The notes: generated by a model from the letters alone, not told the origin. Positions 1-42,656 are shown, numbered from the stretch's first letter. The stretch: DNA of 64,000 nucleotides from Planctomycetota bacterium (GCA_028278425.1 JANQEJ010000327.1:16382-80381), one strand, 5' to 3'. Translations and numbers: made by a program.

Positions 1-11
1 GGAGGTGACGC

Positions 12-1238
12 ATGAAGTGGGTGAACGAAGGGCCGATCCGCCCGGCGCTGCGCATGCTCAGGAACGTGGAGACACCCTGGTGGTCGTGCTTGCCCAAGGC
101 GATGCACGGACCGCTGCTGCTTGCCGCGGCGCAGCGCGGAGAGCCCTTGCAGTCCGGGGAGCTGTCGGGAAACTACGCCGCTGGGCTGGGCGCCTTGGTG
201 GAGGGCCTGGAGGCGATCGGGTTCACGCTGTTCGAGCGTCGGTACGGCGCGAGCTTTGATGTGGAGTCCGCATCCACGGTGCTCGCGAACGAGCGGGGCT
301 ACGTGGTCGTGCAGCCGGGCCCCGGTCACGACCGTTGCCGCATGCGCCTGGCCTGGTTCAGCCACGACCCGGGCTTGCCGTCGGCAATGGAGGCGCTCAG
401 CGCCGACTTCGACCGAACCGAGATCAACAAGCGGGCCCTCTACGTCATCGCTCAGGGGCGCCATGGCCTCACCATGAGCGTCGCTTCGCGCGACATCGCG
501 CGCCCGCTCGAGCGCGGCAACTACGGCGCGCCGACGCTCGCGGCGTATGACCGAGCCGTCGCCGACCTCCAGTTGAGCGATCCGGGTGGGCGCCTGGTGA
601 TCATCGACGGCCCGACGGGCACCGGCAAGACGTGGATGATCCGCGGCCTGATGGACGCGTGTCCGCACGCACGCTTCATTCACTGCTCGCCCACACTCGT
701 CGCGAGCCTCAACGGCCCCGACTTCATGCCGCTGCTGATGGAGGACCGGCTCATGAATGAGGTGAGTATAGGCTCCGACGGCGTGCCCTTGGTGCTGATC
801 ATCGAGGACGGCGACGCGTGCTTGCTCAAGCGGGCCGGCGACAACATGAACCAGATCCAGGCGCTGCTGAACACGGTCGACGGCCTGATGAGCGCGGCAT
901 TCGATTTGCGCGCGATCGTCACCACGAACTCGAGCCACCTGCGCAACCGCAACGAGGAGATCGACGAGGCCATGACGCGGGCTGGTCGCCTGTCGGAGCG
1001 GATCACGGTGCCGAAGCTCGACGGTCCTCACCACTACGCGGTGCTCGAGCGGCTGGTGGGAGGGCCGGAGATCGAGCAGGACGCTCGGATGGCCCACGAC
1101 AAGCGATATTCGCTCGCCGAGGTCTACGCGCATGCCCGCATGCTCGGATGGACGCCTGCCGCCCTCCCCCACACCGTCCCTCCACGCCGCGGCGGCGCAA
1201 CAAGGGAGAGGGAGATCCTCGGGCGCCGGGGATATTGA
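12..1238 (+). CDS. AAA+ ATPase with uncharacterised N-terminal domain
   Basis: 408-aa ORF; Walker A GPTGTGKTW, Walker B LVLIIEDGD, arginine-finger-like TRAGRLSERI. Confidence 0.8.
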   Translation: MKWVNEGPIRPALRMLRNVETPWWSCLPKAMHGPLLLAAAQRGEPLQSGELSGNYAAGLGALVEGLEAIGFTLFERRYGASFDVESASTVLANERGYVVVQPGPGHDRCRMRLAWFSHDPGLPSAMEALSADFDRTEINKRALYVIAQGRHGLTMSVASRDIARPLERGNYGAPTLAAYDRAVADLQLSDPGGRLVIIDGPTGTGKTWMIRGLMDACPHARFIHCSPTLVASLNGPDFMPLLMEDRLMNEVSIGSDGVPLVLIIEDGDACLLKRAGDNMNQIQALLNTVDGLMSAAFDLRAIVTTNSSHLRNRNEEIDEAMTRAGRLSERITVPKLDGPHHYAVLERLVGGPEIEQDARMAHDKRYSLAEVYAHARMLGWTPAALPHTVPPRRGGATREREILGRRGY

Positions 1239-1465
1239 TGGAGAAGAAGAGGACAGGCGTTGCGCTGCGCGTCGAGCAGTACGACGACGAGGGCGAGCTC
1301 GCGCGCGTCTTCACGTGGAACCGCGAGACGCTCATGCTCGGCCGGCTCGACTGCCGCAAGAACCACACGCTCCACATCCTGTGCCCGGACGAGTCCGAGG
1401 CGCTGAAGTACATCCGCCTCTTCGTGGACCACGAGAACACGTGGGGATGGGCAGAACGGCAATGA
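1238..1465 (+). CDS. hypothetical protein
   Basis: In-frame ATG at 1238 abutting the stop of the ATPase gene; non-repetitive 75-aa product; ATGA overlap with the next gene. Confidence 0.5.
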   Translation: MEKKRTGVALRVEQYDDEGELARVFTWNRETLMLGRLDCRKNHTLHILCPDESEALKYIRLFVDHENTWGWAERQ

Positions 1466-2154
1466 GCCAGCGCGACTGGAAAGAGTCCGAGCTGTTCGGC
1501 GGTCCCGACGACGAGCGCTACTCGCACGAGTGTCCGGACGAGTACGCGCTCGATCAGCTCGATGACATGGTCCCGCGCAGCCCGATGTCGACCGAGGACA
1601 TGATCGCGTGGATGCGCCGCGAGGAGGTGGTGATCGACGTCGCCGGGTACAAGCGCGCGTCCCTCGCGAGCGACCTGATCACCCAGGGTGCCGGCTGGGG
1701 TGCGGACGCGACGATCGACTGCTGGGCCGACGAAAGTGTGCTCGACCCGGAGGACTTCCAGGGCACGGAGCAGATGCGCGATGCGCTGATGCAGGCCTAC
1801 CTCGCGGCGGCGGTGCGTCTGCTGCGAGACCGAGGAGGTCCCTGGCACTGCGAGTACGTGGTGATGCACACCTACCAGACCGAAGAGCTGGTCTCGCTGA
1901 TGCTCGGCAACAGCGGGCGCTGTGCGGTCGACGACTGGATGGCCGCGAACCAAGACCTGATCGCCGACCATGCCGGCGACGTCATCGCGATCGATCCGGC
2001 GAGGGGGATCGTCGCGGCGGCGCCGACGCTGGAGACCGTCTACTTGACGGTCGAGAGTCTCGGCCTGGTCAACGAGGTCACGCTTCACTCGGTCCCTCGG
2101 GACCTGGCGAAAGGACAAGAGGATGGGCAACCGAAAGAAGAAGAGGGTCGATGA
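1462..2154 (+). CDS. hypothetical protein
   Basis: ATG 1462 overlaps the previous stop (ATGA); acidic, protein-like composition (MSQRDWKESELFGGPDDE...). Confidence 0.55.
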   Translation: MSQRDWKESELFGGPDDERYSHECPDEYALDQLDDMVPRSPMSTEDMIAWMRREEVVIDVAGYKRASLASDLITQGAGWGADATIDCWADESVLDPEDFQGTEQMRDALMQAYLAAAVRLLRDRGGPWHCEYVVMHTYQTEELVSLMLGNSGRCAVDDWMAANQDLIADHAGDVIAIDPARGIVAAAPTLETVYLTVESLGLVNEVTLHSVPRDLAKGQEDGQPKEEEGR

Positions 2155-2641
2155 TCTGAGCGACGCGCAGGTGCGGAAGATCCGCAAGGACTACGCGTCG
2201 GGACGCAAGAGCCAGCGCGAGCTCGGCGAGAAGTACGGCCTGCGCACGCATCAGATCGGGCGCCTGACGCGGGGCGCGGCACGGGCGGACGCGGGTGGAC
2301 CGATCAGCTCGAACCTCCACAAGAAGCTGACGAAGCGAGAAGTCGCCACCCTGCGGCGCCGCTACAAGAGGGGGGAGGCCAGCCAGGCGACGCTCGCGCG
2401 CGAGTACGGTGTGAGCGCGGCCTCGGTCTCCCGCATGGTGCGGGGCTTCACCTACGACGAGGTCGGGGGCCCGCGCGTCCCGAAGGGGGGCATGCCGCAC
2501 GGGCGGAAGCTGACGCCCAAGCAGATCCTCGACGTCGCGAAGTCGAGCAGCAACATGAGCGAGCTCGCGCGCAAGTACGGCGTGAGCCGCCAGGCGATCC
2601 AGGCCCTGCGCAAGCGCTGGGCGCCGCGCCTCGCAAGCTGA
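2123..2641 (+). CDS. DNA-binding protein with three tandem helix-turn-helix repeats
   Basis: Three internal repeats: SQRELGEKYGLRTHQIGRLTRG / SQATLAREYGVSAASVSRMVRG / NMSELARKYGVSRQAIQALRKR; SD-like agagg before the ATG. Confidence 0.6.
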   Translation: MGNRKKKRVDDLSDAQVRKIRKDYASGRKSQRELGEKYGLRTHQIGRLTRGAARADAGGPISSNLHKKLTKREVATLRRRYKRGEASQATLAREYGVSAASVSRMVRGFTYDEVGGPRVPKGGMPHGRKLTPKQILDVAKSSSNMSELARKYGVSRQAIQALRKRWAPRLAS

Positions 2642-2648
2642 GGGGACG

Positions 2649-3680
2649 ATGGCGTTCCCGACTCACGAGCAGATCGGCACCTACCTCGAGGCGACGGGGT
2701 GGGTGCGCGACGCCGAGCCTGAGGAGACGATCCCCTGGATCACCTACAGCGGCCCCGGTGGCAACCGGGTGCGGCTGCTGGCTCGTCCGGACTACGGCGA
2801 CTACGAGCTGCACAACCGGAAGGCTCTTCAGGTGGTCGCCCATTTGGAGCGGCGCCCCTCCCCAGAGGATCAGGTCGCCGCCGCCGTCGCGGACCTGGGC
2901 GCGCTTGAGGGCGTCGAAGAGGTCGACGCCGCGGCCGAAAAGGGCGATTGGGCCAACGTGATGGCCTTGGCCGAACGCATGGTGAACCGCTCGCCGACCG
3001 ACAGGGCCAAGCTGTGGGGAGCAGTGGTCTACGGGATGGCGGCGTGCATGCTCAAGTACGCGCTCACCGGAGACTCCTCGCCGGTCGAGACCGTGACCGG
3101 GCGCGTGCCGTTCCCGGACCTGCGCAAGCGCGCGGCTCGCCGCGCCAAGCGCATCGCGGACGACCCGAAGCGGCAACAGAGCCTCGTCGATCCGGAGACG
3201 CTGCAGGAGGCGCAGGACAGCTTCCGCCAGCGCCTCTTCGAGGGCAAGACCCCGAAGTGCCCATGCTGCGGGCGCAAGGGGAAGGTGTACAAGCGCAAGC
3301 TCAACAGCGGCATGGCGCGCATGCTGATCCGCTTCTACGAGGTGCACTTCCGGCTGCCCTGTCAGGAGTGGGTCCACGTGCACGACCTGTTCGGCGGCTT
3401 CGGTCAGAAGCACCGCGATTGGCCGGTGCTGCGGCTCTGGGGGCTGCTCGAGCGCAAGGACAAGCGCACGGACAAGGAGAACGCGAGCGGGTTCTGGAAG
3501 CTGACGGCGAAGGGTCGCGCGTTCGTGCGCGGCGAGGGCGAGGTGCCCAAGCACGTGTTCATGTACAACCGGCAGAAGGTGGATGAGAGCGACGAGCGGA
3601 TCACGATCCGCCAGGCGCTGGGAGACGCCTTCGACTACGCGGAGCTGATGACGGTCTTCAACGCGGGTGTCCCACGATGA
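2649..3680 (+). CDS. hypothetical protein with CxxC zinc ribbon and probable winged-helix C-terminus
   Basis: 343-aa ORF; KCPCCGRKGKVYKRKLNSGMARMLIRFY motif followed by WKLTAKGRAFVRGEGEVP. Confidence 0.55.
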   Translation: MAFPTHEQIGTYLEATGWVRDAEPEETIPWITYSGPGGNRVRLLARPDYGDYELHNRKALQVVAHLERRPSPEDQVAAAVADLGALEGVEEVDAAAEKGDWANVMALAERMVNRSPTDRAKLWGAVVYGMAACMLKYALTGDSSPVETVTGRVPFPDLRKRAARRAKRIADDPKRQQSLVDPETLQEAQDSFRQRLFEGKTPKCPCCGRKGKVYKRKLNSGMARMLIRFYEVHFRLPCQEWVHVHDLFGGFGQKHRDWPVLRLWGLLERKDKRTDKENASGFWKLTAKGRAFVRGEGEVPKHVFMYNRQKVDESDERITIRQALGDAFDYAELMTVFNAGVPR

Positions 3681-4018
3681 ATGACCCGTACCGTCACGAT
3701 GAAGTCGCAGCGCTCAAGCGGCGCGTGGCCGAGCTCGAAGCTGAGCTTGAGGTGTACCAGAACCTCCCGGGGAGCGAGTGGGCTCGAACTGCGTGGCTTG
3801 CTCTGCGCCAGGCGCAGCAGGAGAGCGCAGCGGTCGATGAGTTGCAGTTGTGGGCCGCTGCGATCGAGAGGGACCGCCGCAAGCAAAGAAGGGAAGAGCG
3901 GAGCACGCGACAAGAGCAGCGTCGTGTTGCCCGGCGTCGACGTGAGGGGTGGGCGCTATGGGCGCTGCTGATGCTGGCCTTCTTCGTATTGGCGCTCGTG
4001 GGGGGGTACCCCTGGTGA
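3677..4018 (+). CDS. hypothetical coiled-coil protein with C-terminal transmembrane helix
   Basis: ATGA overlap with the previous gene; C-terminal WALWALLMLAFFVLALVGG. Confidence 0.5.
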   Translation: MNDPYRHDEVAALKRRVAELEAELEVYQNLPGSEWARTAWLALRQAQQESAAVDELQLWAAAIERDRRKQRREERSTRQEQRRVARRRREGWALWALLMLAFFVLALVGGYPW

Positions 4019-4335
4019 GCCCCGAGCTGCAACACCTGCACGAGGTCTTGGCCGCGCTCACCGAAAAGTGGCGCGATTTGGGCCTCCCGGTGGAGGATCG
4101 CCTCAATGCAAAGCTCCGGGCTGGACGGATACGACGTGCGCTCATGCCGGACTTGCTCGCGTTGGCCAAGGCGGTAGAGGAGCGCTTTGGGGTGAGTCGC
4201 GAGCAGCCCTTCGGGGCTGAAGACGCCGACCCGGTGGCTGGCACGATCGGCATCACTGAGGCCAGCTTCAATCTGCGCGCCCGCATCCGAGAGGAGCTGC
4301 GCTTGGGCCGCGATATCTACGAGGAGCGGTCATGA
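4015..4335 (+). CDS. hypothetical protein
   Basis: GTG at 4015 overlaps the previous TGA (GTGA); the upstream in-frame ATG at 3949 would overlap the previous gene by 70 nt. Confidence 0.45.
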   Translation: MSPELQHLHEVLAALTEKWRDLGLPVEDRLNAKLRAGRIRRALMPDLLALAKAVEERFGVSREQPFGAEDADPVAGTIGITEASFNLRARIREELRLGRDIYEERS

Positions 4336-4562
4336 GCTGGTTCACGGAGATGCTCAAGGGAGTGCGGCAACAGCGCAACCCGCCCGCGCCCGAGCCGACG
4401 GTCGAGGTCGACGGCATTGCCTACACCGCGGCCGACGTCCGCGAGCTGCTGGCCGAGCGTCAGCGGCTGATCCGCGAGCACGAGGCTCGCGTGATCGCTC
4501 TGCAGGAGGCCCTCTACGAGGCCTCCATGATGATCGTGGAAGGAACGAGTTCAAAGGAATGA
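4332..4562 (+). CDS. hypothetical protein
   Basis: 76-aa ORF, ATGA-coupled to the previous gene. Confidence 0.5.
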   Translation: MSWFTEMLKGVRQQRNPPAPEPTVEVDGIAYTAADVRELLAERQRLIREHEARVIALQEALYEASMMIVEGTSSKE

Positions 4563-4812
4563 GGGCCCCGGCCTCCCTTGGGCACTATCGAGCCCCGGCC
4601 CACCCGGCTGCGCGTCGTGCGTGGCGCGGATTCGGGAGCCGAAAAGGACCGGAAGAGGGCGGGTCTTCTTGCCCGGGGAGCGGTCGCGGCGCCGTCCCTC
4701 GAAAAGCCGCATTCCGCATCTGCGACATGGTCGAGCGCATCAACCAAGGGTCGGTGTTCGGATGGTCCGGGCACGCGGGTTCAAACCCCGCCGGGTGCAT
4801 TGGGGGGTCACC

Positions 4813-6108
4813 ATGAGTCAATCGACAGAGCAAGTGCATTTCACGGTGGACGGCGCGGGTTTCACCGAGCTGGTCCGCAACATCCTTCTCGGCGAGCGGC
4901 CGGACGTCGCGTGGCGGATGGCCGCGCGTGGTCTCGTGGGCGACGGCAGCGAGGCGGTCGCTCGGGGCCTGTTGGACGGCACGCTCCGCCTCGTCAACGT
5001 CTCCAAGGACACCGTCACGGCCGCGCCCGATGCCGACGAGGACTACCAGCGCGATCTCCGGTACATCTACGCGGGGCGCCGGCGTGACGCGGACGGCACG
5101 TGGTGGCGTCCGGCCGCCGTCGTGCTGGGCGCGAGCGCAGCGGCTCGCCGCGCAGCCGCAGAGAAGGCGGACACCGAGCAGCCGTCGCCCGGCGCTGCGC
5201 TGCGCGAGTGGGCGCGCCTGGTGGCCGAGTACTACGCCGACGGCCACGAGCGGGTGAGACTGGTCGGGGGGCGTTGGACGATCTGGGAGCCATGCGGCGA
5301 GCGGCCCTTCTGGTGGGACTCGCCCTCGACGTGGCAGGCCGCGTGGTCGGAGGCCGAGGCCGCGAAACGCGCGATCGAGGAGCGCGGCGCCGCCGATTCA
5401 CGAGTGCTTATCCATGAGCTTGCGCGCGAGGGCGACGCGGATTGGGTGCACGAGGTGTTTGCGCATGCCGAGGCGGAGCGGCGTGCGATCTGGCACTGGG
5501 AGCTCGGAGAGCAGGTGCGCGCGCAGGCTGGCGACGACACCTTCGAGCTCGTCGTCGAGGCGTCTGGCGACGGGCCCGAGCGGCGGCTGACGGTGCCCAG
5601 GGCACCGTTCTGGCACTGGGCGCTGGCCAGCACGAAGCTCGCCCACCTCGCGCCTCCGTGGGAGGTCGTGTCGCCGGTCGGGCTGAAGCTGACATTCGAC
5701 GACCCCTACCACAGCGACTGGATGCTGGGCGCTGGCCTCGACCTGCGGGAAGACTACAGCGCGTTCGGCTCCGAGCCGGTGAGCGACGCTGCGATGGACG
5801 CGCGCTTTGAGCTGCAGAGGCGGCTTGGTTCGTACGAGGTCGCGGTCCTGGCCGACGGCGGCGAGGTGACCGGCGTGGTGGGCAAGGACGTCGCGGTCCT
5901 CCCGACCCTCGGTCCGGAGCATGCCGAGGTCGCGATGGTGAGCCGGGCCATCATTGCGGAGCGCGGCGGCGCGTTGGCTCACCTGGCGGTCGTGGGCCGC
6001 GAGCTCGGCCTGACGATCGTCCGCGACCGAGACGCGGTCTTTCGCTACCCGAAGGGCTGCGTCGTCACCATCAATCCCAGCAACGGCACCGTGAGGATCC
6101 AGCAATGA
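4813..6108 (+). CDS. protein with C-terminal PEP-utilising-enzyme mobile (swivelling phosphohistidine) domain
   Basis: C-terminus GEVTGVVGKDVAVLPTL...AIIAERGGALAHLAVVGRELGLTIV...GCVVTINPSNGTVRI matches the PF00391-type motif GG..SH.A..ARE.G.P; start set at ATG 4813 because the upstream in-frame part is Arg-rich junk. Confidence 0.65.
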   Translation: MSQSTEQVHFTVDGAGFTELVRNILLGERPDVAWRMAARGLVGDGSEAVARGLLDGTLRLVNVSKDTVTAAPDADEDYQRDLRYIYAGRRRDADGTWWRPAAVVLGASAAARRAAAEKADTEQPSPGAALREWARLVAEYYADGHERVRLVGGRWTIWEPCGERPFWWDSPSTWQAAWSEAEAAKRAIEERGAADSRVLIHELAREGDADWVHEVFAHAEAERRAIWHWELGEQVRAQAGDDTFELVVEASGDGPERRLTVPRAPFWHWALASTKLAHLAPPWEVVSPVGLKLTFDDPYHSDWMLGAGLDLREDYSAFGSEPVSDAAMDARFELQRRLGSYEVAVLADGGEVTGVVGKDVAVLPTLGPEHAEVAMVSRAIIAERGGALAHLAVVGRELGLTIVRDRDAVFRYPKGCVVTINPSNGTVRIQQ

Positions 6109-6737
6109 CCACTGAACCCCAAGAGCCGGAGGCCCAGCCTCCCGACCAGGAGGCGCCGGAGCGATCGGAGCAGCGCTCGCCGCTGGAGAGGTGGCGAGAC
6201 GCGCCGCCCGAAGCGCGGGAGAGCGTGCTCTGCATGCTGTACCAGGAGTACCTGCGCGTCACCCGGAGCGGACACATCGCGGTGATGCGCCACAACGCGC
6301 TGCGGGAGCAGCTCAGCACGACTGAGCCGCGCGACACCGAGATCGCGATCGGCGCCACGGCTGGCGCGTATGCCAGCGTCAGGAGCGCGCAGCTCGAGGC
6401 GGCGGCGCTGGATGCGGCACACCAGGTGCTCGTGGACCAGGCGCAGCCTCAGGATTCCGGCGACGAGGGGCTTTCGTTCGCGGCGTTGGTGTCTCGCATC
6501 GCTTACGCGAAGGAGATCGTCTCCCGCTGGGAGCAGCGCTACGAGCGGCGCATCGAGGTCCTGCGCGACCGGCTGAGGGAGGAGCAGGACCCGTACACGA
6601 GGGGCGTTTTGCTCGCGAGGCAGACGGTCTACACCACCGTGCTCACGGAGCTGATGGGGGCCTGTAGCCGCGGCCAGATGCCGCGGCCGCCCGAAGAGGA
6701 CGCCGAGCTTCGGCGCGACGAGGAGCAGAGATCGTGA
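6105..6737 (+). CDS. hypothetical protein
   Basis: 210-aa ORF, ATGA-coupled on both sides. Confidence 0.55.
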   Translation: MTTEPQEPEAQPPDQEAPERSEQRSPLERWRDAPPEARESVLCMLYQEYLRVTRSGHIAVMRHNALREQLSTTEPRDTEIAIGATAGAYASVRSAQLEAAALDAAHQVLVDQAQPQDSGDEGLSFAALVSRIAYAKEIVSRWEQRYERRIEVLRDRLREEQDPYTRGVLLARQTVYTTVLTELMGACSRGQMPRPPEEDAELRRDEEQRS

Positions 6738-7321
6738 ACGACCTTCCCTTCGACATCGACAAGCCCGGGGAGATCAGGACGCTCAGCGGTCACTACCTCG
6801 ACGTGTTCGACCCGGACCCCGCGACGCTGGACATTCGCGACATCGCCCGCGGTCTCGCGCTGCGACCGCGGTACGGTGCGCAGTTGCCGGAGGACTACTC
6901 CATCGGAGAGCACTCGTGCCACGTGCATGACGTGGTGCAGCGGCTCTATCCGAAAGCCACTCGCGCGGAGCTGTTGGCGTCGCTGCTGCACGACGCGCCC
7001 GAGGCCTACATTGGCGACATGCCCAAGCCGATCAAGATGAAGCTGCCGGGCTACCAGGCGCTCGAGACCATTCTTCTCGGTGCGATCTTCGAGCGGTGCC
7101 ACCTCGACGTGTCGTTGCTCGACAAGGGCTCGCCGATCGACCGCATCGACAAGCAGATCCGCTACGCCGAGCGGTTCTGGATCTACAACGACCCCATTCC
7201 GGAGGAGGCGCCCGACTGGGCGCACAAGGTGATCGTGCGCTTCTGGAGCAGCGAGCGCGCCGAGGCGGAGTTCCTGGGACGGTACGCGGCGCTCGTGGGC
7301 CCGCTGCCGCGGGGCTACTGA
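6734..7321 (+). CDS. HD-domain phosphohydrolase (YfbR-like 5'-deoxynucleotidase family)
   Basis: YSIGEHSCHVHDVV and LLHDAPEAYIGDMPKPIK motifs; GTG start overlapping the previous TGA. Confidence 0.75.
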   Translation: MNDLPFDIDKPGEIRTLSGHYLDVFDPDPATLDIRDIARGLALRPRYGAQLPEDYSIGEHSCHVHDVVQRLYPKATRAELLASLLHDAPEAYIGDMPKPIKMKLPGYQALETILLGAIFERCHLDVSLLDKGSPIDRIDKQIRYAERFWIYNDPIPEEAPDWAHKVIVRFWSSERAEAEFLGRYAALVGPLPRGY

Positions 7322-7947
7322 TGGCGCGCCCCGAGGATGTCTCTCACGGGCACCTGCACGGCGAGCTCGTGATGATCCGCTTCGAGCGGCTCTGCGCGCC
7401 CGAGCGTGAGTTCGTGATGGAAAAGGGCTACGGCCCCGACACGGTCGCGCGCGTGGTCATGGTCTCGAGCATGGGCGACGTCGGCCTGACCCGAAGGCTG
7501 GCGGCCGAGCGCGGCTACGACCTCCGGCTCGACCCGCCGAAGGTGCGCGTCCTGACGGGGCGCGACCGGGAGACGGCGAAGCGGCTCGTGAAGCTCGCCC
7601 GGGCGGCTCGGGGCAAGGAGATGGTTACGGCCGCGATGGCTGCCATCTACCAAGCGCTCGAGGCCGCGCGAGACGAGGGGCCGCTCGCCGACGCGGGTGC
7701 GGTGCAGTTCATCCACCACCCGAACGGCGCGCTCGTCGACGCGACGCGCTGTCCCCGGCACGCGGAGGACGAAGAGGTCCGCACGGCCTACCGTCGCGAG
7801 CACGGGTCGCCTCGTGGCGTCGAGCTGCCCTGCATGTGCCGGTTGGTGGCACGAGTGATCTACGCGAGCGAGGAGGTGGAGGCGGCGGCGGTCGAAGCGA
7901 TCAAGCGCTCCTACGAGCGGAACGCAGGGGCAGCTCGGCGCCTTTGA
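7321..7947 (+). CDS. hypothetical protein; its stop codon lies inside the first hairpin repeat
   Basis: ATG 7321 overlaps the previous TGA by 1 nt; C-terminus ...NAGAARRL* is encoded by repeat copy U1 (7929-7956). Confidence 0.55.
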   Translation: MARPEDVSHGHLHGELVMIRFERLCAPEREFVMEKGYGPDTVARVVMVSSMGDVGLTRRLAAERGYDLRLDPPKVRVLTGRDRETAKRLVKLARAARGKEMVTAAMAAIYQALEAARDEGPLADAGAVQFIHHPNGALVDATRCPRHAEDEEVRTAYRREHGSPRGVELPCMCRLVARVIYASEEVEAAAVEAIKRSYERNAGAARRL

Positions 7948-8210
7948 AGCCGTGACTGGAACGAACGACGGCAGCCCGGCGCCTTCGAAGTCGGGACGTG
8001 TAGGTGTGCGCGGCGAGCCCCGAAAGGCGCCACGAGAGCGTGAAGGCAGCTCGGCGCCTTTGAAGCTGGGACCGATCGGGAAATCGCGGAGCGTGAAGGC
8101 AGCTCGGCGCCCTGAAGCCGGGACGGGGGCCAAAGGCAGCTCGGCGCCTTTGAAGCCGGGACCGCATACGGCGTGAGGAGAAGGCAGCTCGGCGCCTTTG
8201 GGTCGGGAAA
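7929..8210 (+). CRISPR. upstream CRISPR-like array: 6 direct copies of a ~28-nt hairpin repeat with irregular spacing
   Basis: Copies start at 7929, 7970, 8045, 8098, 8135 and 8183. Subfamily consensus is GGCAGCTCGGCGCCTTTGAAGCCGGGAC. Spacers are 13, 47, 25, 10 and 20 nt. The last copy is degenerate. Confidence 0.6.
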
Positions 8211-8226
8211 AAGAGGAGCGAAGAGG

Positions 8227-9693
8227 ATGGTCAAACGAAGAACGAGCTCGGTCCCGTGCCGGGTGTACAAGTACGGCGCGCTGCCCCCGGAGCCGCGCGA
8301 TGTCGTGGACGAGCAGATGTGGCTGGCGCACCGCTACTACAACGACCTGATCGAGGTCGAGCACGCTCGGCGCCAGGCCTTCGTCTGGGCGCGCGACCGC
8401 GTGTCGGCGGAGGAGCTGCGTGAGGTCTCGAAGCAGATCGAGGAGGAGCGCAAGGACGTCTGCAACGCGCGCGTCCGCGACCCTGAGTGGGGGCCCGGGC
8501 TGCGCGGCACGTGCGGGCTCTACTCGGGCACCTACCTGCTCATCGAGGCGCAGGCCGAGCAGGCGCGGAAGAAGAAGGGCGCGCCGCCTCGGTTCCGGCG
8601 CTGGACGGGGGAGGGGGCGATCGGCATCCAGTGCGCCAAGCCCATCCCCGTCTCGGAGCTGATGGACGGCACCAACCGCTACGCGTCGATCGACACGTCT
8701 CCGCGCTACCACATCCGCACGGGGCGCCCCATCAAGAACGGCGCGCTGCTCACCTGCGTCGTCGGGCCCGGAGGCACCAAGGCCAGCTTCTCGATGAAGC
8801 TGCACCGGCCGCTGCCGGAGGACGGCCTCGTGCGCTGGATCAAGATCCTGCGGCGCCGCACTGCCGAGACGAGCGTCGCGGGGGTGCGGGAGAAGTGGGA
8901 GGTCCACATCACCGTGGAGTCCTCGACGTTCATTCGGCCCGAGCGCAAGGGACCTGTCGCGGCCATCGACCTGTGTTGGTCGAAGGGGCGCGTCGGGCAC
9001 CTGCTCGGCGAGGACGGATATGAGGAGCCGATTCTGCCGCACACGGCCATCGTGAAGAAGCTCCGCTACGCCGACTCGGTTCGGTCGATCCGGGACGGGT
9101 ACCTGAACGTGGCCAAGGAGTGGGCGGCCATCAACATCGACCCGCGCGTCCGGAGCTGGCACCGGATGCACGCGAAGGGGCTGATGCGGAAGATCCGCGA
9201 GTGGAGAGAGGAGGGTCACGACGTCGCCGTGCTGGAGGCGTGGCGCCATCGCGACACCCACCTCTACCAGATCGAGCACAACGTGCGGGCCAAGGCCAAG
9301 CGCCGCCTTCAAAACGACTACCGCGTGTGGGCGCGTCGCGTCGTGGACCGCTACCCGGTGATTATCCTCGAGGACCTCGACCTGTCGGAGCTCGCGACCG
9401 AGAACAGCGGCGGCAAGTGGGGCAACCACCAGCGCTTCGTGTACGCGCCCAGTCGGCTGCGTGACGCGCTGGCCAATGCGGGCGCGCAGATCGTGAAGGT
9501 GCCGGCCGCGTACACGAGCGCGCTCTGTCACTGCTGCGGCAAGGAGGTCGGTGGCACCTACCACCGGCCTCGCTGCGAGGAGTGCGACTGGGTGGGCGAC
9601 CGGCGCGAGAACGCTGTGCGGAACATCCTCGCGGATGGCATGGAGGCGCTGGGCAGAGCGCCGAAGAGAGAGGAGGCAGCTCAACGCCCGTAG
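8227..9693 (+). CDS. TnpB/Cas12-like RNA-guided RuvC endonuclease (miniature type V-like effector)
   Basis: TnpB hallmarks in order: N-terminal CRVYKYGALPP..RYYNDLIE; PPRFRRW; RuvC-I VAAIDLCWSK; RuvC-II YPVIILEDLDLSEL; Zn ribbon AAYTSALCHCCG...RCEECDW; RuvC-III GDRRENAVRNIL. SD gaggag lies 8 nt before ATG 8227. Confidence 0.85.
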   Translation: MVKRRTSSVPCRVYKYGALPPEPRDVVDEQMWLAHRYYNDLIEVEHARRQAFVWARDRVSAEELREVSKQIEEERKDVCNARVRDPEWGPGLRGTCGLYSGTYLLIEAQAEQARKKKGAPPRFRRWTGEGAIGIQCAKPIPVSELMDGTNRYASIDTSPRYHIRTGRPIKNGALLTCVVGPGGTKASFSMKLHRPLPEDGLVRWIKILRRRTAETSVAGVREKWEVHITVESSTFIRPERKGPVAAIDLCWSKGRVGHLLGEDGYEEPILPHTAIVKKLRYADSVRSIRDGYLNVAKEWAAINIDPRVRSWHRMHAKGLMRKIREWREEGHDVAVLEAWRHRDTHLYQIEHNVRAKAKRRLQNDYRVWARRVVDRYPVIILEDLDLSELATENSGGKWGNHQRFVYAPSRLRDALANAGAQIVKVPAAYTSALCHCCGKEVGGTYHRPRCEECDWVGDRRENAVRNILADGMEALGRAPKREEAAQRP

Positions 9694-10641
9694 AAGTTGA
9701 GACTTGATGAAGGCAGCTCGGCGCCGTTGAAGCCGTGACGACCTGTTGAGGGCGCTCGGAGGCAGCTCGGCGCCGTTGAAAAGTCGAGACCTGATCGGCG
9801 TGCGTCATCCAAGGCCGTGGAAAGGCGGACTGAGGCAGCTCGGCGCCGTACAAGACCGAGACGTTGGTGTCGTCACACGTCGTCAATGACCGAGACTGGT
9901 GAAGCCGGTTGGTGAGAGGCAGCTCGGCGCCGTACAAGCCGAGACGCTACGCCGCCGCGATCGGAGGGACCGGTCACGAGATGACGGAGGCAGCTCGGCG
10001 CCGTCGAAGACCGAGACTGGTGAAGCCGGTGGTGAGAGGCAGCTCGGCGCCATTGAAAGCCGAGAGGCGAAGCAGAAGTCGGAGAGGCAGCTCGGCGCCG
10101 TTGAGCCGGGACGCAATAGGCACCTCGGCGCCGTTGAAGCCGAGACGCGAAGAGATGAGGCAGTTCGGAGCCGTGGAATCCGAAAGGCGAGCGGGAGTCT
10201 CTACGGACAACCAAGGGAGGCAGCTCGGCGCCGTTGAAGCCGGGAAGCGGGGCCATGTCAGGAGGCAGCTCGGCGCCGTTGAGCCGGGACGCAATGAATG
10301 CGGACAAAGGAGGCAGCTCGGCGCCGTTGAAGCCGAGACAGCGCCGACTCTGGCCCCTCCGAGCAGCGCATGCCCCACTACGTGGCAGTTCGGCGCCGTA
10401 GAAGACCGAGACGTTTGGGAGCCCGGCCTACTCACGACAAGGTCCGGTAGAGGTAACTCAACACCGTTGAAGTTGGGACTACTGCTGGGGCCGGTGAAGG
10501 CAGCTCGTCGCCTGAGCAAAAGACGAGACCCCGCTGCGACTGACCTGACCGGAGGCAGCTCGGCGCCGTTGAAGCCGAGACGAGCGCTCACGCACCGCCT
10601 CGTGATGACATGAGGCACCTCGGCGCCGTACAAGCCGAGAC
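9675..10641 (+). CRISPR. downstream CRISPR-like array: 18 direct copies of the hairpin repeat with irregular spacing
   Basis: Copies start at 9675, 9712, 9761, 9834, 9918, 9989, 10038, 10086, 10119, 10159, 10219, 10264, 10312, 10384, 10452, 10499, 10554 and 10614. Consensus is GGCAGCTCGGCGCCGTTGAAGCCGAGAC. Spacers are 6-55 nt. A truncated remnant lies at 9886-9897. The first copy overlaps the nuclease stop codon. Confidence 0.65.
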
Positions 10642-10688
10642 TTCCGCGCGATCGTGGCTCGGCCGGAAAAACTGCTAGGCTGAGGCGC

Positions 10689-11621
10689 GTGACCGCCGCG
10701 CCTCCCATGAACCCGAAGACGGCTCGCCTGCTCAGCAACATGGGCGAGCGGACGAGCCGGCGAACGGGTCGGCGCACCTTCCACGCCGGGATGGACATCG
10801 GTTCGCGCCAGGGCGCGGGTGCGCTGATCACGGCGTCGCAGGCCGGCACGATCGAGCACGTGCTCGCCGAAGACGACCGCCGGCGCGCCTTCCGGGGCTA
10901 CGGCAACGGGGTGATCGTCGATCACGGCGACGGCACGTGGGCGCTCTACGCCCACATGGAGCGCGTCGCGCCCGGCCTCGCGCCCGGGATGCGTGTCGAG
11001 CCCGGAACGCCGCTCGGCTACATGGGCAACACCACCAACGGCGCCTTTCGGATGCCGGTGCCCCACCTTCATCTCGAGCTCCGGCGCGCGAAGGCCGATG
11101 GCTCGAGCCCGTTCCCGGGGCCCTACCGCACCTACAACCTCGATCCGGCCGACTGGCTGAGCGGCAAGGGCATGCGGTTCGTGCGCCGCGGGGGCCTCGA
11201 GATCGACCGGGACTCCCCGATCGATCTGGCCCGGCCCCAGTGGGAGGCGATCCACCCGTACACGACCGCGCCGGGCCTGGGGCAGAGCCGTCTCTACCCG
11301 AAGCTACCGCAGCGAGTGATCGCGTCGCCGGAGATCGTGCCGATCCGCGTGGGCGGCGGCCGGTGGGCTCTCGGCGCGATGGGCCAGAAGCCGGGCATGA
11401 TGCCGGGCTACGGTCAGCCGGTGCCGTACGGCCAGAAGGGGAGCGCCTCGAGCAAGCCCGGCGTCCCCTACGATTTCAGCGTGGTGAACATCTACGAGCC
11501 GGTGCGGATGGACCGCGACGTCCTGTTCGGCCTGAGTCCGGTGGCGTGGGGCCTTCTCGGCCTCGGGCTGGCGGTGCTCGTCGGCGGCACGGTGTACGTG
11601 CTGACGACCCGCCGCGCGTAG
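10689..11621 (+). CDS. M23 family metallopeptidase with C-terminal transmembrane anchor
   Basis: HAGMDIG (HxxxD), GNGVIVDHGDGTWALYAHM and HLHLELR (HxH) motifs; C-terminal WGLLGLGLAVLVGGTVYVL. Confidence 0.8.
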   Translation: MTAAPPMNPKTARLLSNMGERTSRRTGRRTFHAGMDIGSRQGAGALITASQAGTIEHVLAEDDRRRAFRGYGNGVIVDHGDGTWALYAHMERVAPGLAPGMRVEPGTPLGYMGNTTNGAFRMPVPHLHLELRRAKADGSSPFPGPYRTYNLDPADWLSGKGMRFVRRGGLEIDRDSPIDLARPQWEAIHPYTTAPGLGQSRLYPKLPQRVIASPEIVPIRVGGGRWALGAMGQKPGMMPGYGQPVPYGQKGSASSKPGVPYDFSVVNIYEPVRMDRDVLFGLSPVAWGLLGLGLAVLVGGTVYVLTTRRA

Positions 11622-13588: not shown

Positions 13589-14281
13589 ATGCGACGCAAC
13601 CGCGCCATCTCACGCCTGTTGTCTCTGCTCGCCCCTCTCGCGCTGCTCGTGGCGCTGCTCGCGCCCGGGCCCGGTACAGCGCAAGATCAGCGTCGCCGGC
13701 GCCTGACCCGCGCCGAGCTGCGCCTGCTCGAGCTCGAGTCGAAGCTGTCCTTCAACGAGGCGGGCGACTCCTACCACGACGCGGCGCTCATCCATCAGAT
13801 CGTGGAGGGAAAGGGCGAGACGCTGGTTGAGCGGATCCGGTGGATCGAGGACCACTCCCGGTGCGTCTCGGGCGTCCTGACGCAGGACCAGGCGAACGCT
13901 CGCGAGGGCAACTGCCGTTGGACCCGGAACCTGCACCAGGACGGGCGCCGGCCGCGCGGATGGAACCGCGCGTTGGATGGGCGGTGGAGCTGGACGCGTC
14001 GGCGCTGGGTGAACCACGTGCCGGTGGTGCGCCGCTTCGTCACGGGCGAGGACGACTACCGCCCGTGCGAGGAGCAGCCCGACTCGTGGGACGGCGTGCG
14101 CTACGGCCGCGCCTGCATCGAGCGTGGCGCGGACTGCCCGCCGATCATGCAGAGGACGGCCTCGAGGCGTGCGCGCCGGCCGCGGCGCGTGCTCGATTGC
14201 GCGGTGCCGTATACCCGCGATCCCGCGGCGGAGGGGCTCCACAACTTCGCGGTGGACCTCAATCCGAGCGGGCCGAGCTGA
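13589..14281 (+). CDS. secreted hypothetical protein (signal peptide; Trp/Arg/Cys-rich)
   Basis: MRRNRAISRLLSLLAPLALLVALLAPGPGTAQ signal-like N-terminus; ATG 13589. Confidence 0.55.
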   Translation: MRRNRAISRLLSLLAPLALLVALLAPGPGTAQDQRRRRLTRAELRLLELESKLSFNEAGDSYHDAALIHQIVEGKGETLVERIRWIEDHSRCVSGVLTQDQANAREGNCRWTRNLHQDGRRPRGWNRALDGRWSWTRRRWVNHVPVVRRFVTGEDDYRPCEEQPDSWDGVRYGRACIERGADCPPIMQRTASRRARRPRRVLDCAVPYTRDPAAEGLHNFAVDLNPSGPS

Positions 14282-15178: not shown

Positions 15179-15434
15179 CGGGCACCGCATGGCGGTGCTC
15201 ACGGCGCCAGCACCGGTCGCAGACGCGCGACTGCCCGGTGACGTAGGGGCCGTGCGCGGTGCCGTCGAAGAGGAAGTGACTGTCGAACCAGCCGTCGGGG
15301 TCCGTATCGCCACCGACGGACCAGACGTGTCCGTGAAACCGGCACCGCGCCACTCGCCAGAGAAAGTCCGCGATCTCGCCCGCGCCGTCGCGCACGATCT
15401 CGACGCGCTGGCGCCACCGCGCGAGGGAGCTCAT
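15171..15434 (-). CDS. hypothetical protein
   Basis: 87-aa ORF coupled to its neighbours. Confidence 0.45.
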   Translation of the reverse strand: MSSLARWRQRVEIVRDGAGEIADFLWRVARCRFHGHVWSVGGDTDPDGWFDSHFLFDGTAHGPYVTGQSRVCDRCWRREHRHAVPDE

Positions 15435-15880
15435 CGCTGCATGAGGATGTAGCGCTCGAACATCATGTTCGTGAGCGCTTCGCCCGAGGGCGCGTTGCGC
15501 TTTCTCTTGACGGTCTGGATCGCTTTCTTCGGATCGTGGCCGAGGCGCACCATGGTGAGTGCCGAAAGCAGGCCCGACCGGTTGCGGCCCTGGGCGCAGG
15601 TGGTGAGCACCTTGCGGCCGGCGCGGATGTGGCGCGCGAGCCCGCGGCTGATTTCGCGCAGCTTGCGGTCGTCGTCGTACGTGATCGGGCTGTACTCGGT
15701 GTCGTCCATGGGGACGAGGATCACCGTCTTGCCGCGAGGAGGCCGGAACCGTTTGGGCTGGAGCTCCTCGGCCGCGAAGACGACCACGTCGAAGCCCGCC
15801 TCGTACGGGGCGATGAGGGGCTCGGGGTAGGACCCCTGGCCCAGTCCGGGTATGATCCAGTCAAAATCCAGCGCCGACAC
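15431..15880 (-). CDS. dual-specificity / tyrosine protein phosphatase
   Basis: CX5R(S/T) active-site loop VLTTCAQGRNRSGLLSA. Confidence 0.75.
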   Translation of the reverse strand: MSALDFDWIIPGLGQGSYPEPLIAPYEAGFDVVVFAAEELQPKRFRPPRGKTVILVPMDDTEYSPITYDDDRKLREISRGLARHIRAGRKVLTTCAQGRNRSGLLSALTMVRLGHDPKKAIQTVKRKRNAPSGEALTNMMFERYILMQR

Positions 15881-23511: not shown

Positions 23512-23967
23512 ATGTCGTGGCTGATCGTCGCGGCCGTCGTCGGACTCCTGATGACGGCCCTCACCGCTTGGGTATTCGACCCCATCGTCGACCTCGTGCG
23601 CGCGCACCCTCAGGCAGCCCTCGTATTCCCTCGCTCCGGCGGTCTTGTAGGAAGGGTGCTGATCCGCATGCTCGCTCCGCTGGTGTTGGCGCCGGGGAGC
23701 CTGTGGATGGCCTTTCGCGGCTGGAGGTGGATGCGGCAGACATGGCCGGCCGAGCCACTGGGACCGCGCCGCCTCCTCAACCTCACGCGCGCGATGCTGC
23801 TGGACCTGATCCTCATGCCGAGGGCCGCGCACTTCCCACTGGCGGCGCAAGACATCTCCGAGGCCGGCTACGAGCACTTCGTGCCGTGGCTGGTCCCTCT
23901 ACTCAAGAAGCTGGTCGAGCCCGAAGTCGCTGACGACTCGGAGGATTCGACGCCGCTGTCGCCCTGA
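23512..23967 (+). CDS. hypothetical membrane protein
   Basis: 151 aa with several hydrophobic segments (MSWLIVAAVVGLLMTALTAWVF...). Confidence 0.5.
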   Translation: MSWLIVAAVVGLLMTALTAWVFDPIVDLVRAHPQAALVFPRSGGLVGRVLIRMLAPLVLAPGSLWMAFRGWRWMRQTWPAEPLGPRRLLNLTRAMLLDLILMPRAAHFPLAAQDISEAGYEHFVPWLVPLLKKLVEPEVADDSEDSTPLSP

Positions 23968-24705
23968 CATGAGGTGCTCGGTGCGCGTCTGCCCGCGCCG
24001 AATGCCGGCCCACTCCTTGGCGCGCAGGCTCGGCCGACGCGGGTCGATCCCACGGGGTCGCTCGGCGCCGACCGCGGCGAACAGGAGATCGAGCTCGTCA
24101 TCGGGCGCGGCCACCAGCCGCTCGTAGCGGACGAGGGTGAAGAGGGACGGGTCGAGCCTGGGGACGGCCAGGTACGTGACGCACCACCACGCGGCGAGCC
24201 ACTCGACCGCGCCCTCGAGCCGCGAAACCGCGCCTCGGATGTGGGGATGCTCGGCGATCACGTGGGCCATCGCCTTGATGTCCATGGGTGTGCCCTTCTC
24301 GTGCGCACCGACGCGGAGCTGGCTGTTCACGGCGTCGCATGGGTCGCGGACGATCACGTAGGTGCCTCGGATCGGCATGCGGCAGAGCACGGGGAGCAAA
24401 CGCCCTGCGCGCACGAACTTGCCCACCACGCCGATGGTCGGCACGCCGTGCAGGCCGGCCCCAGACCGCGTCGTGCCCTGGAACTCCTCCGCTCCAGTGA
24501 GCATCCGCGTCAGTGCCTCGTGCGCCCGTGGTGAGGGGCCCGGACGCCACGCGTCGCCGAGGTGCTCCGCGACGCAGGGGTACCCGGGCCGGATCGGCTC
24601 GAAGAGCATCGCGTAGCCGGGCATCTGCGCCAGCATCTGGGCGAGCCACGTCGTGCCGCATCGGTGGTTGCCGACGACGGCGATCGCGTTCTCGAGGGGC
24701 GTCAC
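23899..24705 (-). CDS. sulfotransferase family protein
   Basis: PAPS 5'-phosphosulfate loop VVGNHRCGTTWLAQML and 3'-phosphate motif YVIVRDPCDAVNSQ. Confidence 0.7.
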   Translation of the reverse strand: MTPLENAIAVVGNHRCGTTWLAQMLAQMPGYAMLFEPIRPGYPCVAEHLGDAWRPGPSPRAHEALTRMLTGAEEFQGTTRSGAGLHGVPTIGVVGKFVRAGRLLPVLCRMPIRGTYVIVRDPCDAVNSQLRVGAHEKGTPMDIKAMAHVIAEHPHIRGAVSRLEGAVEWLAAWWCVTYLAVPRLDPSLFTLVRYERLVAAPDDELDLLFAAVGAERPRGIDPRRPSLRAKEWAGIRRGQTRTEHLMSGRQRRRILRVVSDFGLDQLLE

Positions 24706-30986: not shown

Positions 30987-31355
30987 CTACGCACGGTCTC
31001 TCCAGTGCTGCAGCGCCGCGTGGACACCCTGGTGGGTCGGAACGGGCAGCGCGTCGAGCTCGAACCAGCCCGCGTCGTCGTGCTCGTCGTTGAGGTCGAC
31101 CTCGAACTCCTCGGGGAGCTTGACCAGCAGCGTCGCGTAGTCGTCTCGATCGAGCCTGTCGGCGATGTGCAGGAAGCCGCGGTAGCCCGTCTCCTCCTCG
31201 AGCTCGCGCAGGGCCGCGTCGCGAACGCTCTCCCCGGGCTCAATGTTGCCGCCGGGGATCGACCACAGGCCCGGGGATCCACCCTGGTCGGAGCGCAGCA
31301 GGAGGAGCACGCGGCCGGTCGTGTTCACGACGATGAGGGTGCCCGCCGATCTCAT
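30987..31355 (-). CDS. Nudix (MutT-family) hydrolase
   Basis: Nudix box GGNIEPGESVRDAALRELEEETGY. Confidence 0.8.
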   Translation of the reverse strand: MRSAGTLIVVNTTGRVLLLLRSDQGGSPGLWSIPGGNIEPGESVRDAALRELEEETGYRGFLHIADRLDRDDYATLLVKLPEEFEVDLNDEHDDAGWFELDALPVPTHQGVHAALQHWRDRA

Positions 31356-31393
31356 GGTGACGAGCCTACCACCGAGGGGTACGATGGCGAGCG

Positions 31394-31912
31394 GTGGCGA
31401 CGTACCTGGAGATGCCCGAGGAGCTCATCGAGCCGAACGGCGGCTCGAAGTGGGAGGTCGTCTACGATCCGTCCGTCGTCTATCGTTGGCTGAAGCCGGT
31501 CCGCGTGGTGGGCCTGATGCCGAAACGCAAGCGGCGCCGTCGACCGAAGCGCTCGTCGATCCCCGATCTGCTGAACGCGATCGTCGACCACGACCGCGAA
31601 GCGATCTACGTGGCGATGCTCACCAAGCAGCAGCGCGTGTTCGCGGTGTACGTGCTGGGCATCGGGGGCCCGAACGCGACGACGGTGGACCGTACGACGC
31701 TGCTGCGGTCGGTGCTGCTCGCCAATCCAGACGGTGGCGTCGTGCTCATCCACAACCATCCCTCGGGTCGGAAGAGGCCCTCGACCGACGACGCGCATCT
31801 TACGAAGAGCGCGAGCGAGCTGCTCGGCCGCTTTGGCTACAAGCTGGTGGATCACCTCGTGATCGCACGCGACGGTGTCTTCTCGTTCGAGCAGGCCGGG
31901 ATGGTGGGCTGA
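31394..31912 (+). CDS. radC: RadC-like JAB/JAMM domain protein
   Basis: HNHPSGRKRPSTDDAHLT JAMM motif; GTG start. Confidence 0.8.
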   Translation: MATYLEMPEELIEPNGGSKWEVVYDPSVVYRWLKPVRVVGLMPKRKRRRRPKRSSIPDLLNAIVDHDREAIYVAMLTKQQRVFAVYVLGIGGPNATTVDRTTLLRSVLLANPDGGVVLIHNHPSGRKRPSTDDAHLTKSASELLGRFGYKLVDHLVIARDGVFSFEQAGMVG

Positions 31913-38698: not shown

Positions 38699-38925
38699 TC
38701 GCTCTCCGGCGCGCCCATCGGACGCCCACTCAAGAGGTTGCGAATGAATCGACCCGAGGGATCGAACCGGACGACCCAGAGGGACATCCACAAGAACGCG
38801 AGCGCCGCCACGACCAGCGCGACACGCCAAAGCCCGCGGGGGGCACACGTCAACGGGAGGGAGAGCCAGAAGGCGCTCCCCACGAGTCGCCACATCACGC
38901 TCCGATCGAGCGGCGACCCGTTCAC
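38695..38925 (-). CDS. small membrane protein
   Basis: 76 aa with two hydrophobic helices. Confidence 0.4.
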   Translation of the reverse strand: MNGSPLDRSVMWRLVGSAFWLSLPLTCAPRGLWRVALVVAALAFLWMSLWVVRFDPSGRFIRNLLSGRPMGAPESE

Positions 38926-39132
38926 CCGCCTTTCCTCTCGGGCGCATCAGCGCAGGCGCCGTCCGATTCGGGCCGCGTCCTGCGTCGTTCACTGCGCGTC
39001 TGCTCGTCGTCGGGCCACTGCGGCGAAGCCAGGGTGTGACCGATCAGGATCTGGTGCTCGGGCAGCTCGAACCATTTGGGGTCGGTCATTGCTGCTGCGC
39101 TCGTTGCTTGATTCGTTCGCTGCGCTTCATGT

Positions 39133-42044: not shown

Positions 42045-42072
42045 GGTTCGCCTGCTCGGTGGGATGAGACGC

Positions 42073-42654: not shown

Positions 42655-42656
42655 CG

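Follow-up and report, generated by a model that had tools for sequence, protein, structure and literature searches.

The stretch of DNA analyzed here, 64,000 nucleotides (nt) from a Planctomycetota bacterium (GCA_028278425.1 JANQEJ010000327.1:16382-80381), hereafter referred to as the window, has a GC content of 68.4% and contains on its plus strand a cas12m-like gene that is flanked on both sides by arrays of a short hairpin repeat. The gene (8227-9693; GC content at third codon positions, GC3, 0.91) encodes 488 amino acids (aa), as stated in a preliminary description of the stretch, and a public collection contains, as an independent call on a 106-kb contig, an identical protein (P0001). A fuzzy search (GGCAGCTCGGCGCCGTTGAAGCCGAGAC) revealed 24 repeat copies, all on the plus strand, with six upstream of the gene (7929-8209) and 18 downstream of it (9675-10641), exactly as counted in the preliminary description; the exact 28-mer with three or fewer mismatches gave 10 matches versus 0.00 expected by chance. 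A covariance model built from the repeats recovered the same 24 copies within the window and one weak match on the minus strand (34924-34966, 16.9 bits, E 0.07), the sole match outside the locus and probably due to chance. No reverse-complement copy of the repeat was found anywhere in the 64-kb window, nor was an anti-repeat resembling a trans-activating CRISPR RNA (tracrRNA).

The six upstream repeats (7929-7956, 7970-7997, 8045-8072, 8098-8124, 8135-8162, and 8183-8209) form a sequence subtype of their own with the loop TTTGAA and the stem end CCGGG. They are separated by intervals of 13, 47, 25, 10, and 20 nt, corresponding to repeat-to-repeat periods of 41, 75, 53, 37, and 48 nt. The first overlaps the stop codon of a 208-aa open reading frame (ORF; 7321-7947, plus strand; no family match in Pfam and PHROGs scans), the stop lying within the repeat loop, and the last, which is the most degenerate, stops 17 nt before the cas12m start codon. 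These 17 nt, read directly from the sequence as AAAGAGGAGCGAAGAGG (8210-8226), make up a purine-rich, Shine-Dalgarno-like cas12m leader that fills the 'guide' position of the last upstream repeat. On the other side, the cas12m stop codon lies within the first downstream repeat (9675-9703), whose stem, CTCAAC/GTTGAG, is a compensated one. The downstream intervals amount to 8, 21, 43, 55, 43, 20, 19, 6, 12, 32, 17, 21, 44, 39, 19, 24, and 32 nt, with periods of 37, 49, 73, 84, 71, 49, 48, 33, 40, 60, 45, 48, 72, 68, 47, 55, and 60 nt. Regular units of ~36 nt repeat plus 36 nt spacer were not observed: periods across the window ranged from 33 to 84 nt, clustered in two groups near 72 and near 48, and fell within 68-75 nt in 5 of 22 cases. 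Intervals of at least 17 nt accounted for 17 of the 22.

Traces of rearrangement were visible within the downstream array. Its 55-nt interval contains the remnant of a repeat 3'-end (GACCGAGAC, 9888-9896), after which comes a near-copy of the 10018-10037 interval, and repeat 14 plus GCAAT (10086-10118) is a truncated duplicate of repeat 18 with its spacer (10264-10311). An independent assembly of this phage from Logan (L003) was identical to the window over 1-10113 and stopped after repeat 14; up to position 10113, the irregular spacing thus cannot be put down to an error in a single assembly. A reading of the array region as a repeat-protein gene (ORF 9909-10613) was rejected because its translation passes through the repeat in two or more frames and stem changes compensate at the RNA level. 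On the plus strand, the intervals (7957-10613) were purine-rich (A 0.24 and G 0.37, versus A 0.16 and G 0.35 for the window), and purines still made up ~57% after the last 3 nt of each interval had been dropped.

All protein motifs quoted in the preliminary description were present in the order given there, namely YKYGAL (residue 14), PPRFRRW (120), AIDLCW (246), ILEDLDL (380), CHCC (434), CEEC (450), and GDRRENA (457); C434, C437, C450, and C453 form the CxxC...CxxC zinc ribbon of the TNB domain (9526-9585). In phmmer searches of the PDB, the protein matched Cas12m (23vw_A, E 2.3e-32 over aa 112-470; UnCas12m4a, 2e-12), and TnpB and Cas12f chains gave values of 0.1 or worse. The only Pfam match was Cas12f1-like_TNB, and two NCBIfam TnpB models matched the C-terminal part only, below their cut-offs (NF040570, 48.9 bits versus 100; NF038281, 23.7 versus 425). 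With an AlphaFold2 model (43-sequence alignment, mean predicted local distance difference test 89), the top four Foldseek matches in the PDB were Cas12m2 (8hhm, 8hhl, 8hio) and GoCas12m (8pm4), with E values of 1e-22 to 1e-19 and template-modeling scores of 0.62-0.68, followed further down by Cas12f (~1e-13), TnpB (~1e-11), and Cas-lambda (3.5e-5). A fold search of BFVD returned TnpB/Fanzor-like viral proteins only (1e-14 or worse). Thus, on the basis of both sequence and fold matches, the 488-aa protein belongs to subtype V-M/Cas12m (formerly V-U1) and is not a plain TnpB; the profile searches and structural comparison behind this assignment had been proposed as a check in the preliminary description.

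In a library of 1.84 billion representative proteins, the family comprised 243 clusters at E < 1e-30, and the clade of the window protein was represented by one full-length cluster at 50% identity and a truncated fragment (P0124). This clade is formed by the window protein and P0002-P0004, which are 67-72% identical and 488-520 aa long, the next relatives being ≤40% identical. The representative library also held a few other proteins of 498-517 aa with ~38% identity in a single-stretch alignment; complete relatives recovered from metagenome loci had 532-765 aa, and the two solved Cas12m matched by sequence have 577-614 aa. Most of the size difference falls within one region: in the phmmer alignment, the window protein had ~50 residues fewer in the region of the helical insertion of the recognition (REC) lobe (query 82-112 versus chain 93-176), and blocks of this insertion that are present in P0007 were missing from the aligned small clade. 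A conserved His-Arg pair in LHRPLP (H193/R194) probably corresponds to His269/Arg270 of Cas12m2, which read the CRISPR RNA (crRNA), as judged from PMC10442227. A locus search of IMG/VR with the protein as query returned no relatives; a homologue from IMG/VR (L005) was matched by tblastn. A gene fragment in a metagenome locus (L131 2134-2727, Ga0214472_10008550) encodes the N-terminal 199 aa with 75% identity to the window Cas12m and breaks off into unrelated minus-strand genes; the locus is devoid of repeats, and the fragment looks like a pseudogene remnant of the small clade.

At the RuvC site, Asp248 of RuvC-I (AIDLCW, 8968-8970; the family has D, N, or H here) and Glu382 of RuvC-II (ILEDLDL, 9370-9372) were found, followed by D458-R459-R460 in the RuvC-III region (9598-9606), where R460 occupies the position of the canonical catalytic Asp. 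The family consensus at RuvC-III is W-D-Q-D-x-N-A; the clade reads G-D-R-R-E-N-A in three members and G-D-R-R-I-N-A in P0004. Arg in place of the second Asp was seen in all four clade members and nowhere else among the sequences examined. Pairwise HMMER alignments matched R460 with the second Asp of DQD/DRD in the two solved Cas12m, with the Asp of DRDENAA in Fanzor2, and with residue 401 of AsCas12f, which we take to be the RuvC-III catalytic Asp of that enzyme. The catalytic residues had initially been described as intact; the motif GDRRENA is indeed present, but with this substitution the claim does not hold. As deduced from these alignments, the triad is D-E-R, so that the D-E-D triad of nuclease-active type V effectors is not present. 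D-E-R is also absent from the triads given for four published Cas12m clades (HEK/HQK, HDD, DED/NED, and DED/DND/NED; PMC10442227). Cas12m variants with D-E-D, H-D-D, and N-D-D triads bind DNA without cutting (PMC11013384), and all Cas12m assayed in PMC11013384 and 10.64898/2026.03.26.714355 bind DNA while none cuts it; a stepwise inactivation of RuvC in V-M was noted earlier (PMC10691335).

The repeat consists of a 3-bp 5' helix (-28 to -26 with -17 to -15, GGC with GCC at the loop start) and a 6-bp stem (-23 to -18 with -8 to -3), followed by 2 nt before the variable segment. In the PmCas12m crRNA resolved by cryogenic electron microscopy, -28 to -26 pair with -17 to -15 and -23 to -20 with -6 to -3; the mature form comprises ~33 nt of repeat and ~17 nt of guide, the precursor being cut behind nt 2-3 of the repeat and at nt 17-18 of the guide, with an optimal guide of 17 nt (10.64898/2026.03.26.714355). 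The window repeat is a Cas12m crRNA scaffold with its helices at the PmCas12m positions. The 6-bp stem followed by 2 nt, which the preliminary description had likened to tracrRNA-independent type V crRNAs, was described correctly there, and the geometry matches the Cas12m scaffold specifically.

This structure was evident from covariation. Among 51 aligned repeats from the window, L005, and L010, 97.8% of the pair cells were paired with double changes in 6 of 9 pairs, none of 500 shuffles reached these scores, and pairing fell to 25-49% when the partners were slid. An extended set of 116 model matches from ten sources was 98.6% paired, with double changes in 7 of 9 pairs and again 0 of 500 shuffles attaining the scores. 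The 5' helix lies outside the covariance model, yet its third pair varied as CG (73), UA (21), and UG (9). Within the window alone, 9 of 216 pair cells, in four units, were doubly compensated (examples are CTCAAC/GTTGAG, TTCGGA/TCCGAA, CTCGTC/GACGAG, and GGT/ACC) versus 9 unpaired cells, 4 of them alignment gaps. Folding of single sequences also gave the hairpin, with z-scores of only -1.2 to 0 that were not significant; the structural evidence is therefore covariation and not folding energy. A search of Rfam over 7000-11500 with E values up to 1 identified no family.

The same repeat type was found next to related genes. The contig encoding a 72% identical protein (L001) stops inside a repeat that overlaps the stop codon, like that in the window, and the contig encoding a 67% identical one (L002) stops in a repeat 120 nt past the stop. 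The repeat type also follows more distant homologues of 28-36% identity (L005, L010, L132, and L167): on a 112.9-kb viral contig from IMG/VR (L005), a gene for a 605-aa homologue (28% identical, tblastn 3e-35) is followed by at least 37 repeats of the window type, and model matches adjoin homologues also in L010, L132, L167, L148, L156, and L172. Since the repeat tracks the gene over 28-72% identity, a coincidental neighborhood of repetitive extragenic palindromic (REP) or miniature inverted-repeat transposable element (MITE)-like sequences is excluded as far as the data allow. In most metagenome loci with a clear array the period was 72-75 nt with occasional shorter units (regular examples are L133, L135, L136, L138, L148, L162, and L172), and a rough neighbor-joining tree, calculated without support values, placed the window clade inside the Cas12m family next to such regular-array lineages.

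Several of these relatives showed peculiarities of their own. In L005, the ten gene-proximal units are regular, with intervals of 41-49 nt including a conserved 5' repeat extension, and the distal ones are irregular (11-49 nt). This array (6343-10385 in IMGVR_UViG_3300018432_000013) is split by 1.6 kb containing a 222-aa ORF, with two further repeats beyond, and two of its spacers have a 20-nt 3' part in common, pointing to duplication with 5' truncation. In L010 (7329-8690, JGI 3300077578), ~20 hairpin units lie downstream of genes for a 586-aa homologue and a 189-aa ORF; the stems are wholly different yet always paired (CCCCGC/GCGGGG, CTCAGG/CCTGAG, CTCATG/CATGAG, and CACGGG/CCCGTG), and the spacing of 35-140 nt shows no 72-nt period. 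An unrelated lineage (L167, Ga0187892_10006359; 340-430, 3244-3423, and 5322-5782) encodes a Cas12m homologue with NQQ at RuvC-III and has units with 16-20-nt spacers on both sides of the gene and between neighboring ORFs, the last upstream unit abutting the start codon like that in the window. Directly before the cas12m start codon, L001 (7975-8000) and L002 (3158-3184) carry the conserved motif GTTGTTTCGACGCnCTTTTGGTT, which may be a promoter or leader element; the window lacks it and has the upstream array in that position.

PHROGs and Pfam assigned 48531-50255 to a terminase large subunit, 33212-34258 to a tyrosine integrase, and 10689-11621 to an M23 peptidase/lysin-like protein; they also identified thymidylate synthase (ThyA), NDK, and a deoxynucleoside monophosphate phosphatase, and many ORFs had no match. 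These assignments bear out the phage-like neighborhood noted before. When all gene calls across the 64 kb were scanned against Pfam and PHROGs, no Cas1, Cas2, Cas4, Y1 transposase, or serine recombinase turned up, in line with the earlier statement that tnpA, cas1, cas2, and cas4 are missing.

Taken together, we consider it likely that the locus is a phage-encoded CRISPR-like module of subtype V-M (Cas12m type) without adaptation genes. Transcription on the plus strand would read through the upstream array, cas12m, and the downstream array, and each repeat would fold into the Cas12m crRNA scaffold seen by covariation, followed by 2 nt. As in characterized Cas12m, the 488-aa protein would bind this scaffold, cut the precursor itself, and keep ~17 nt downstream of it as guide; the complex would then bind matching double-stranded DNA beside a protospacer adjacent motif and block transcription or replication without cutting. 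Binding without cutting fits the Arg at the RuvC-III Asp position. Judged by analogy with other Cas12m, the most likely function is guide-directed DNA binding and silencing without cleavage, and the module would probably serve a temperate phage either in competing with other mobile elements or in repressing genes of the host or the phage.

A number of observations weigh against this assignment. Five intervals (6, 8, 10, 12, and 13 nt) are too short to serve as guides, only one assembly supports the downstream array past 10113, and the upstream array is missing from the two closest relatives (L001 and L002). D458, two residues before R460, is conserved, so that residual or rearranged catalysis is possible. 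Comparison of the intervals with the rest of the window (best match 14 nt), with the cas12m gene, and with each other in antisense gave chance-level matches only. No protospacer above chance level was found for the whole locus in GenBank phages, for the downstream array in PLSDB plasmids, or for two interval 20-mers in IMG/VR. A promoter and terminator scan gave nothing above shuffled expectation, the promoter scan being uninformative at 68% GC. When the spacers of L005 were compared with the window, three partial matches of 16-20 nt were obtained, which were treated as chance since none extends or starts at the guide 5' end.

The irregular arrays look derived: a once-regular array with a period of ~72 nt was probably altered by deletions, partial duplications, and rearrangement, the latter presumably leaving units on both sides of the gene. 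They appear derived and not primitive because the clade appears nested among regular-array lineages and the window retains units of 68-75 nt. Only the first ~17 nt after the repeat matter to Cas12m, so the length beyond can drift, and uneven intervals would arise in a genome unable to add spacers. A possible though doubtful extension is that the arrays of the clade are fixed, individually selected guide genes and not an immune memory, together acting as a built-in multi-target transcriptional repressor with possible self-regulation. Units would then last long enough to acquire compensatory stem changes, spacer length would be free above ~17 nt, and units could settle on both sides of the gene, including the leader of its own mRNA. 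Were this true, the arrays of L010 and L167 would mark a recurrent, adaptation-independent evolution of guide arrays.

Could the locus instead be a decaying relic, an eroded old array without useful guides whose protein is near loss or kept for something else? The short intervals within the range of 6-55 nt, the repeat remnant and truncated duplicates, and the failure to find targets in the window, GenBank phages, PLSDB, and (for the two 20-mers) IMG/VR would fit such a history, as would the truncated same-clade pseudogene in L131 and the representation of the clade by one full-length cluster plus the truncated P0124 in the 1.84-billion library. We regard this as unlikely, since the ORF is intact with a GC3 like that of its neighbors and with family-invariant residues kept, 17 of 22 intervals reach the 17-nt guide length, and no window unit has a disrupted 5' helix. 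Moreover, the nine compensated double-substitution cells in four units would not be expected under neutral decay.

Fixed guides could also act as a hard-wired regulator in which individually selected guide genes repress host or phage promoters and the repeat in the leader autoregulates cas12m by sequestering its ribosome-binding site. The conservation of structure while sequences diverge among the units, in the window and far more so in L010, suggests that old units were kept individually, the last upstream repeat abuts the Shine-Dalgarno-like sequence, and two-sided arrays recur in L167. Cas12m is, in addition, a natural programmable repressor (PMC11013384), and the window offers no adaptation module. 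However, matches to the intervals were found neither in the 64 kb of phage sequence nor in the cas12m gene, and the two closest relatives have no upstream array, which makes this explanation quite improbable here.

An IS200/IS605-type TnpB element, or REP/MITE-like dispersed repeats that lie beside a transposon nuclease by coincidence, could account for the TNB zinc-ribbon domain, for the weak and partial NCBIfam TnpB matches, and for the overlap of the first downstream repeat with the stop codon, which resembles that of omega RNA with the tnpB end. Such an origin is very improbable: the NCBIfam scores of 49 and 24 compare with cut-offs of 100 and 425, Foldseek places Cas12m ~9 orders of magnitude before TnpB, tnpA and a serine recombinase were not found in the window, and 24 short units stand in place of a single omega RNA. 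The preliminary description had named dispersal of the repeat as a sign of a REP/MITE-like origin; within the 64-kb window, all copies fall between 7929 and 10641 on one strand, the remaining 61 kb containing none, and in homologues of 28-72% identity the repeat type follows the gene. A search of genome contigs with a degenerate 24-nt pattern gave, among the matches listed, single chance matches in GC-rich genomes, and the pattern is too loose to bear on dispersal. That the repeats are RNA anti-CRISPR decoys mimicking a host CRISPR repeat to soak up host Cas proteins, as solitary repeat units and mini-arrays of phages do (reviewed in PMC11656645), is hardly credible for a phage that itself encodes the cognate effector and a repeat that covaries with the effector lineage, with no host V-M system known.

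Compared with characterized V-M systems (MmCas12m2, GoCas12m, and PmCas12m), the V-M module in the window is alike in fold, sequence family, zinc-ribbon TNB domain, and altered RuvC site, in the crRNA scaffold with its helix positions and 2 nt before the guide, and in its location on a mobile element without tracrRNA-like anti-repeat and without cas1, cas2, or cas4. It differs in the length of the protein (488 aa versus 532-765 aa in relatives and 577-614 aa in solved Cas12m), in having arrays on both sides of the gene with intervals of 6-55 nt instead of ~36 nt, and in showing no conservation of the 5' 8 nt that belong to the usual 36-nt repeat. The lack of cas1, cas2, and cas4 had been taken as a misfit to a canonical CRISPR-Cas locus; V-M loci, however, have arrays but no other cas genes and normally lack adaptation genes (PMC10691335). 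The proposal of a miniature phage-encoded type V-like system stands as far as a small phage-borne type V effector with its own arrays is concerned, but the system is not an unclassified one and falls into the named subtype V-M.

IS200/IS605 TnpB elements share with the window the RuvC and zinc-ribbon core and a guide-RNA element whose start lies within the 3' end of the gene; unlike them, the window has neither a transposase nor element ends, the protein is structurally closer to Cas12m, and a ~30-nt scaffold is present 24 times in place of a single ~150-nt omega RNA. Cas12f (V-F) and Cas12j/Cas-lambda are small like the window protein, and Cas12j/Cas-lambda also shares phage origin and guides without tracrRNA. 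Both groups differ in cutting DNA, and Cas12f requires a tracrRNA, acts as a dimer, and gave Foldseek values of 1e-13 or worse. The suggestion of a transposon-to-CRISPR intermediate was not upheld: in the rough neighbor-joining tree the clade lies inside Cas12m among regular-array lineages, and the irregularity looks secondary. The locus alone does not show a TnpB-to-CRISPR transition; it represents an unusual form of a CRISPR subtype already known and not a new kind of system.

V-M systems are already known from plasmids and prophages, and a myxophage Cas12m is described in one preprint. This MvCas12m from myxophage MV-1 is reported to have 610 aa, a D-E-D triad, and an eight-spacer array without targets (10.64898/2026.09.14.751636). 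Two 610-aa proteins (P0008 and P0009) were considered as the published MvCas12m and rejected, as they do not have D, E, and D at residues 305, 463, and 555. The 197-kb phage record of virus Rctr197k (KX853510, L183 3459-6875) encodes a Cas12m homologue of ~620 aa (29% identity, 99% coverage, labeled 'similar to transposase') that adjoins an annotated 1.5-kb CRISPR with a period of 72-74 nt. Both resemble the window in combining a virus-encoded Cas12m and an adjacent array without adaptation genes and without identified targets; they differ in size (610 and ~620 aa), the window protein being ≤29-36% identical to relatives of that length. What is new in the window is the small D-E-R clade together with two-sided, length-irregular arrays of conserved structure.

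The locus extends the short list of virus-borne V-M systems. Base and epigenome editors are being developed with Cas12m as a compact platform for DNA binding, and the natural proteins in use have ~580-600 aa; a natural relative of 488 aa with a shortened REC insertion shows which parts are removable and is a candidate for a smaller tool. The arrays illustrate what may become of guides in a genome unable to add spacers, with hairpins kept by selection while spacers drift in length and units are duplicated, shortened, and relocated so that they flank the gene on both sides. They thereby bear on array evolution in the absence of Cas1-Cas2, an issue brought up for the many type V variants without adaptation genes.

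The surroundings of the gene varied between related phages. In L001, cas12m is preceded by a gene whose counterpart in the window lies at 13679-14122, 5 kb from the window cas12m, and ThyA and NDK, which precede cas12m in L002, have theirs at 41070-44700, over 30 kb away. These displaced neighbors indicate that the cassette of cas12m and array occupies different sites in related phages. A conserved accessory gene beside cas12m was considered and rejected, the neighbors being different in every relative. Accessory genes of the window (30987-31912, 38162-38992, 15431-15880, and 23899-24705) encode NUDIX hydrolase, RadC-like JAB, DUF1643, dual-specificity phosphatase, and sulfotransferase-like proteins. 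In a Logan assembly (L004 582-7557, SRR24908268), a Cas12m-like gene whose product is 38% identical lies in a block with Csf3 (PF27782), CRISPR_assoc PF08798, a PAPS-reductase-like protein, and a DNA polymerase III beta clamp, which places type IV-like components beside a V-M-like effector on one element.

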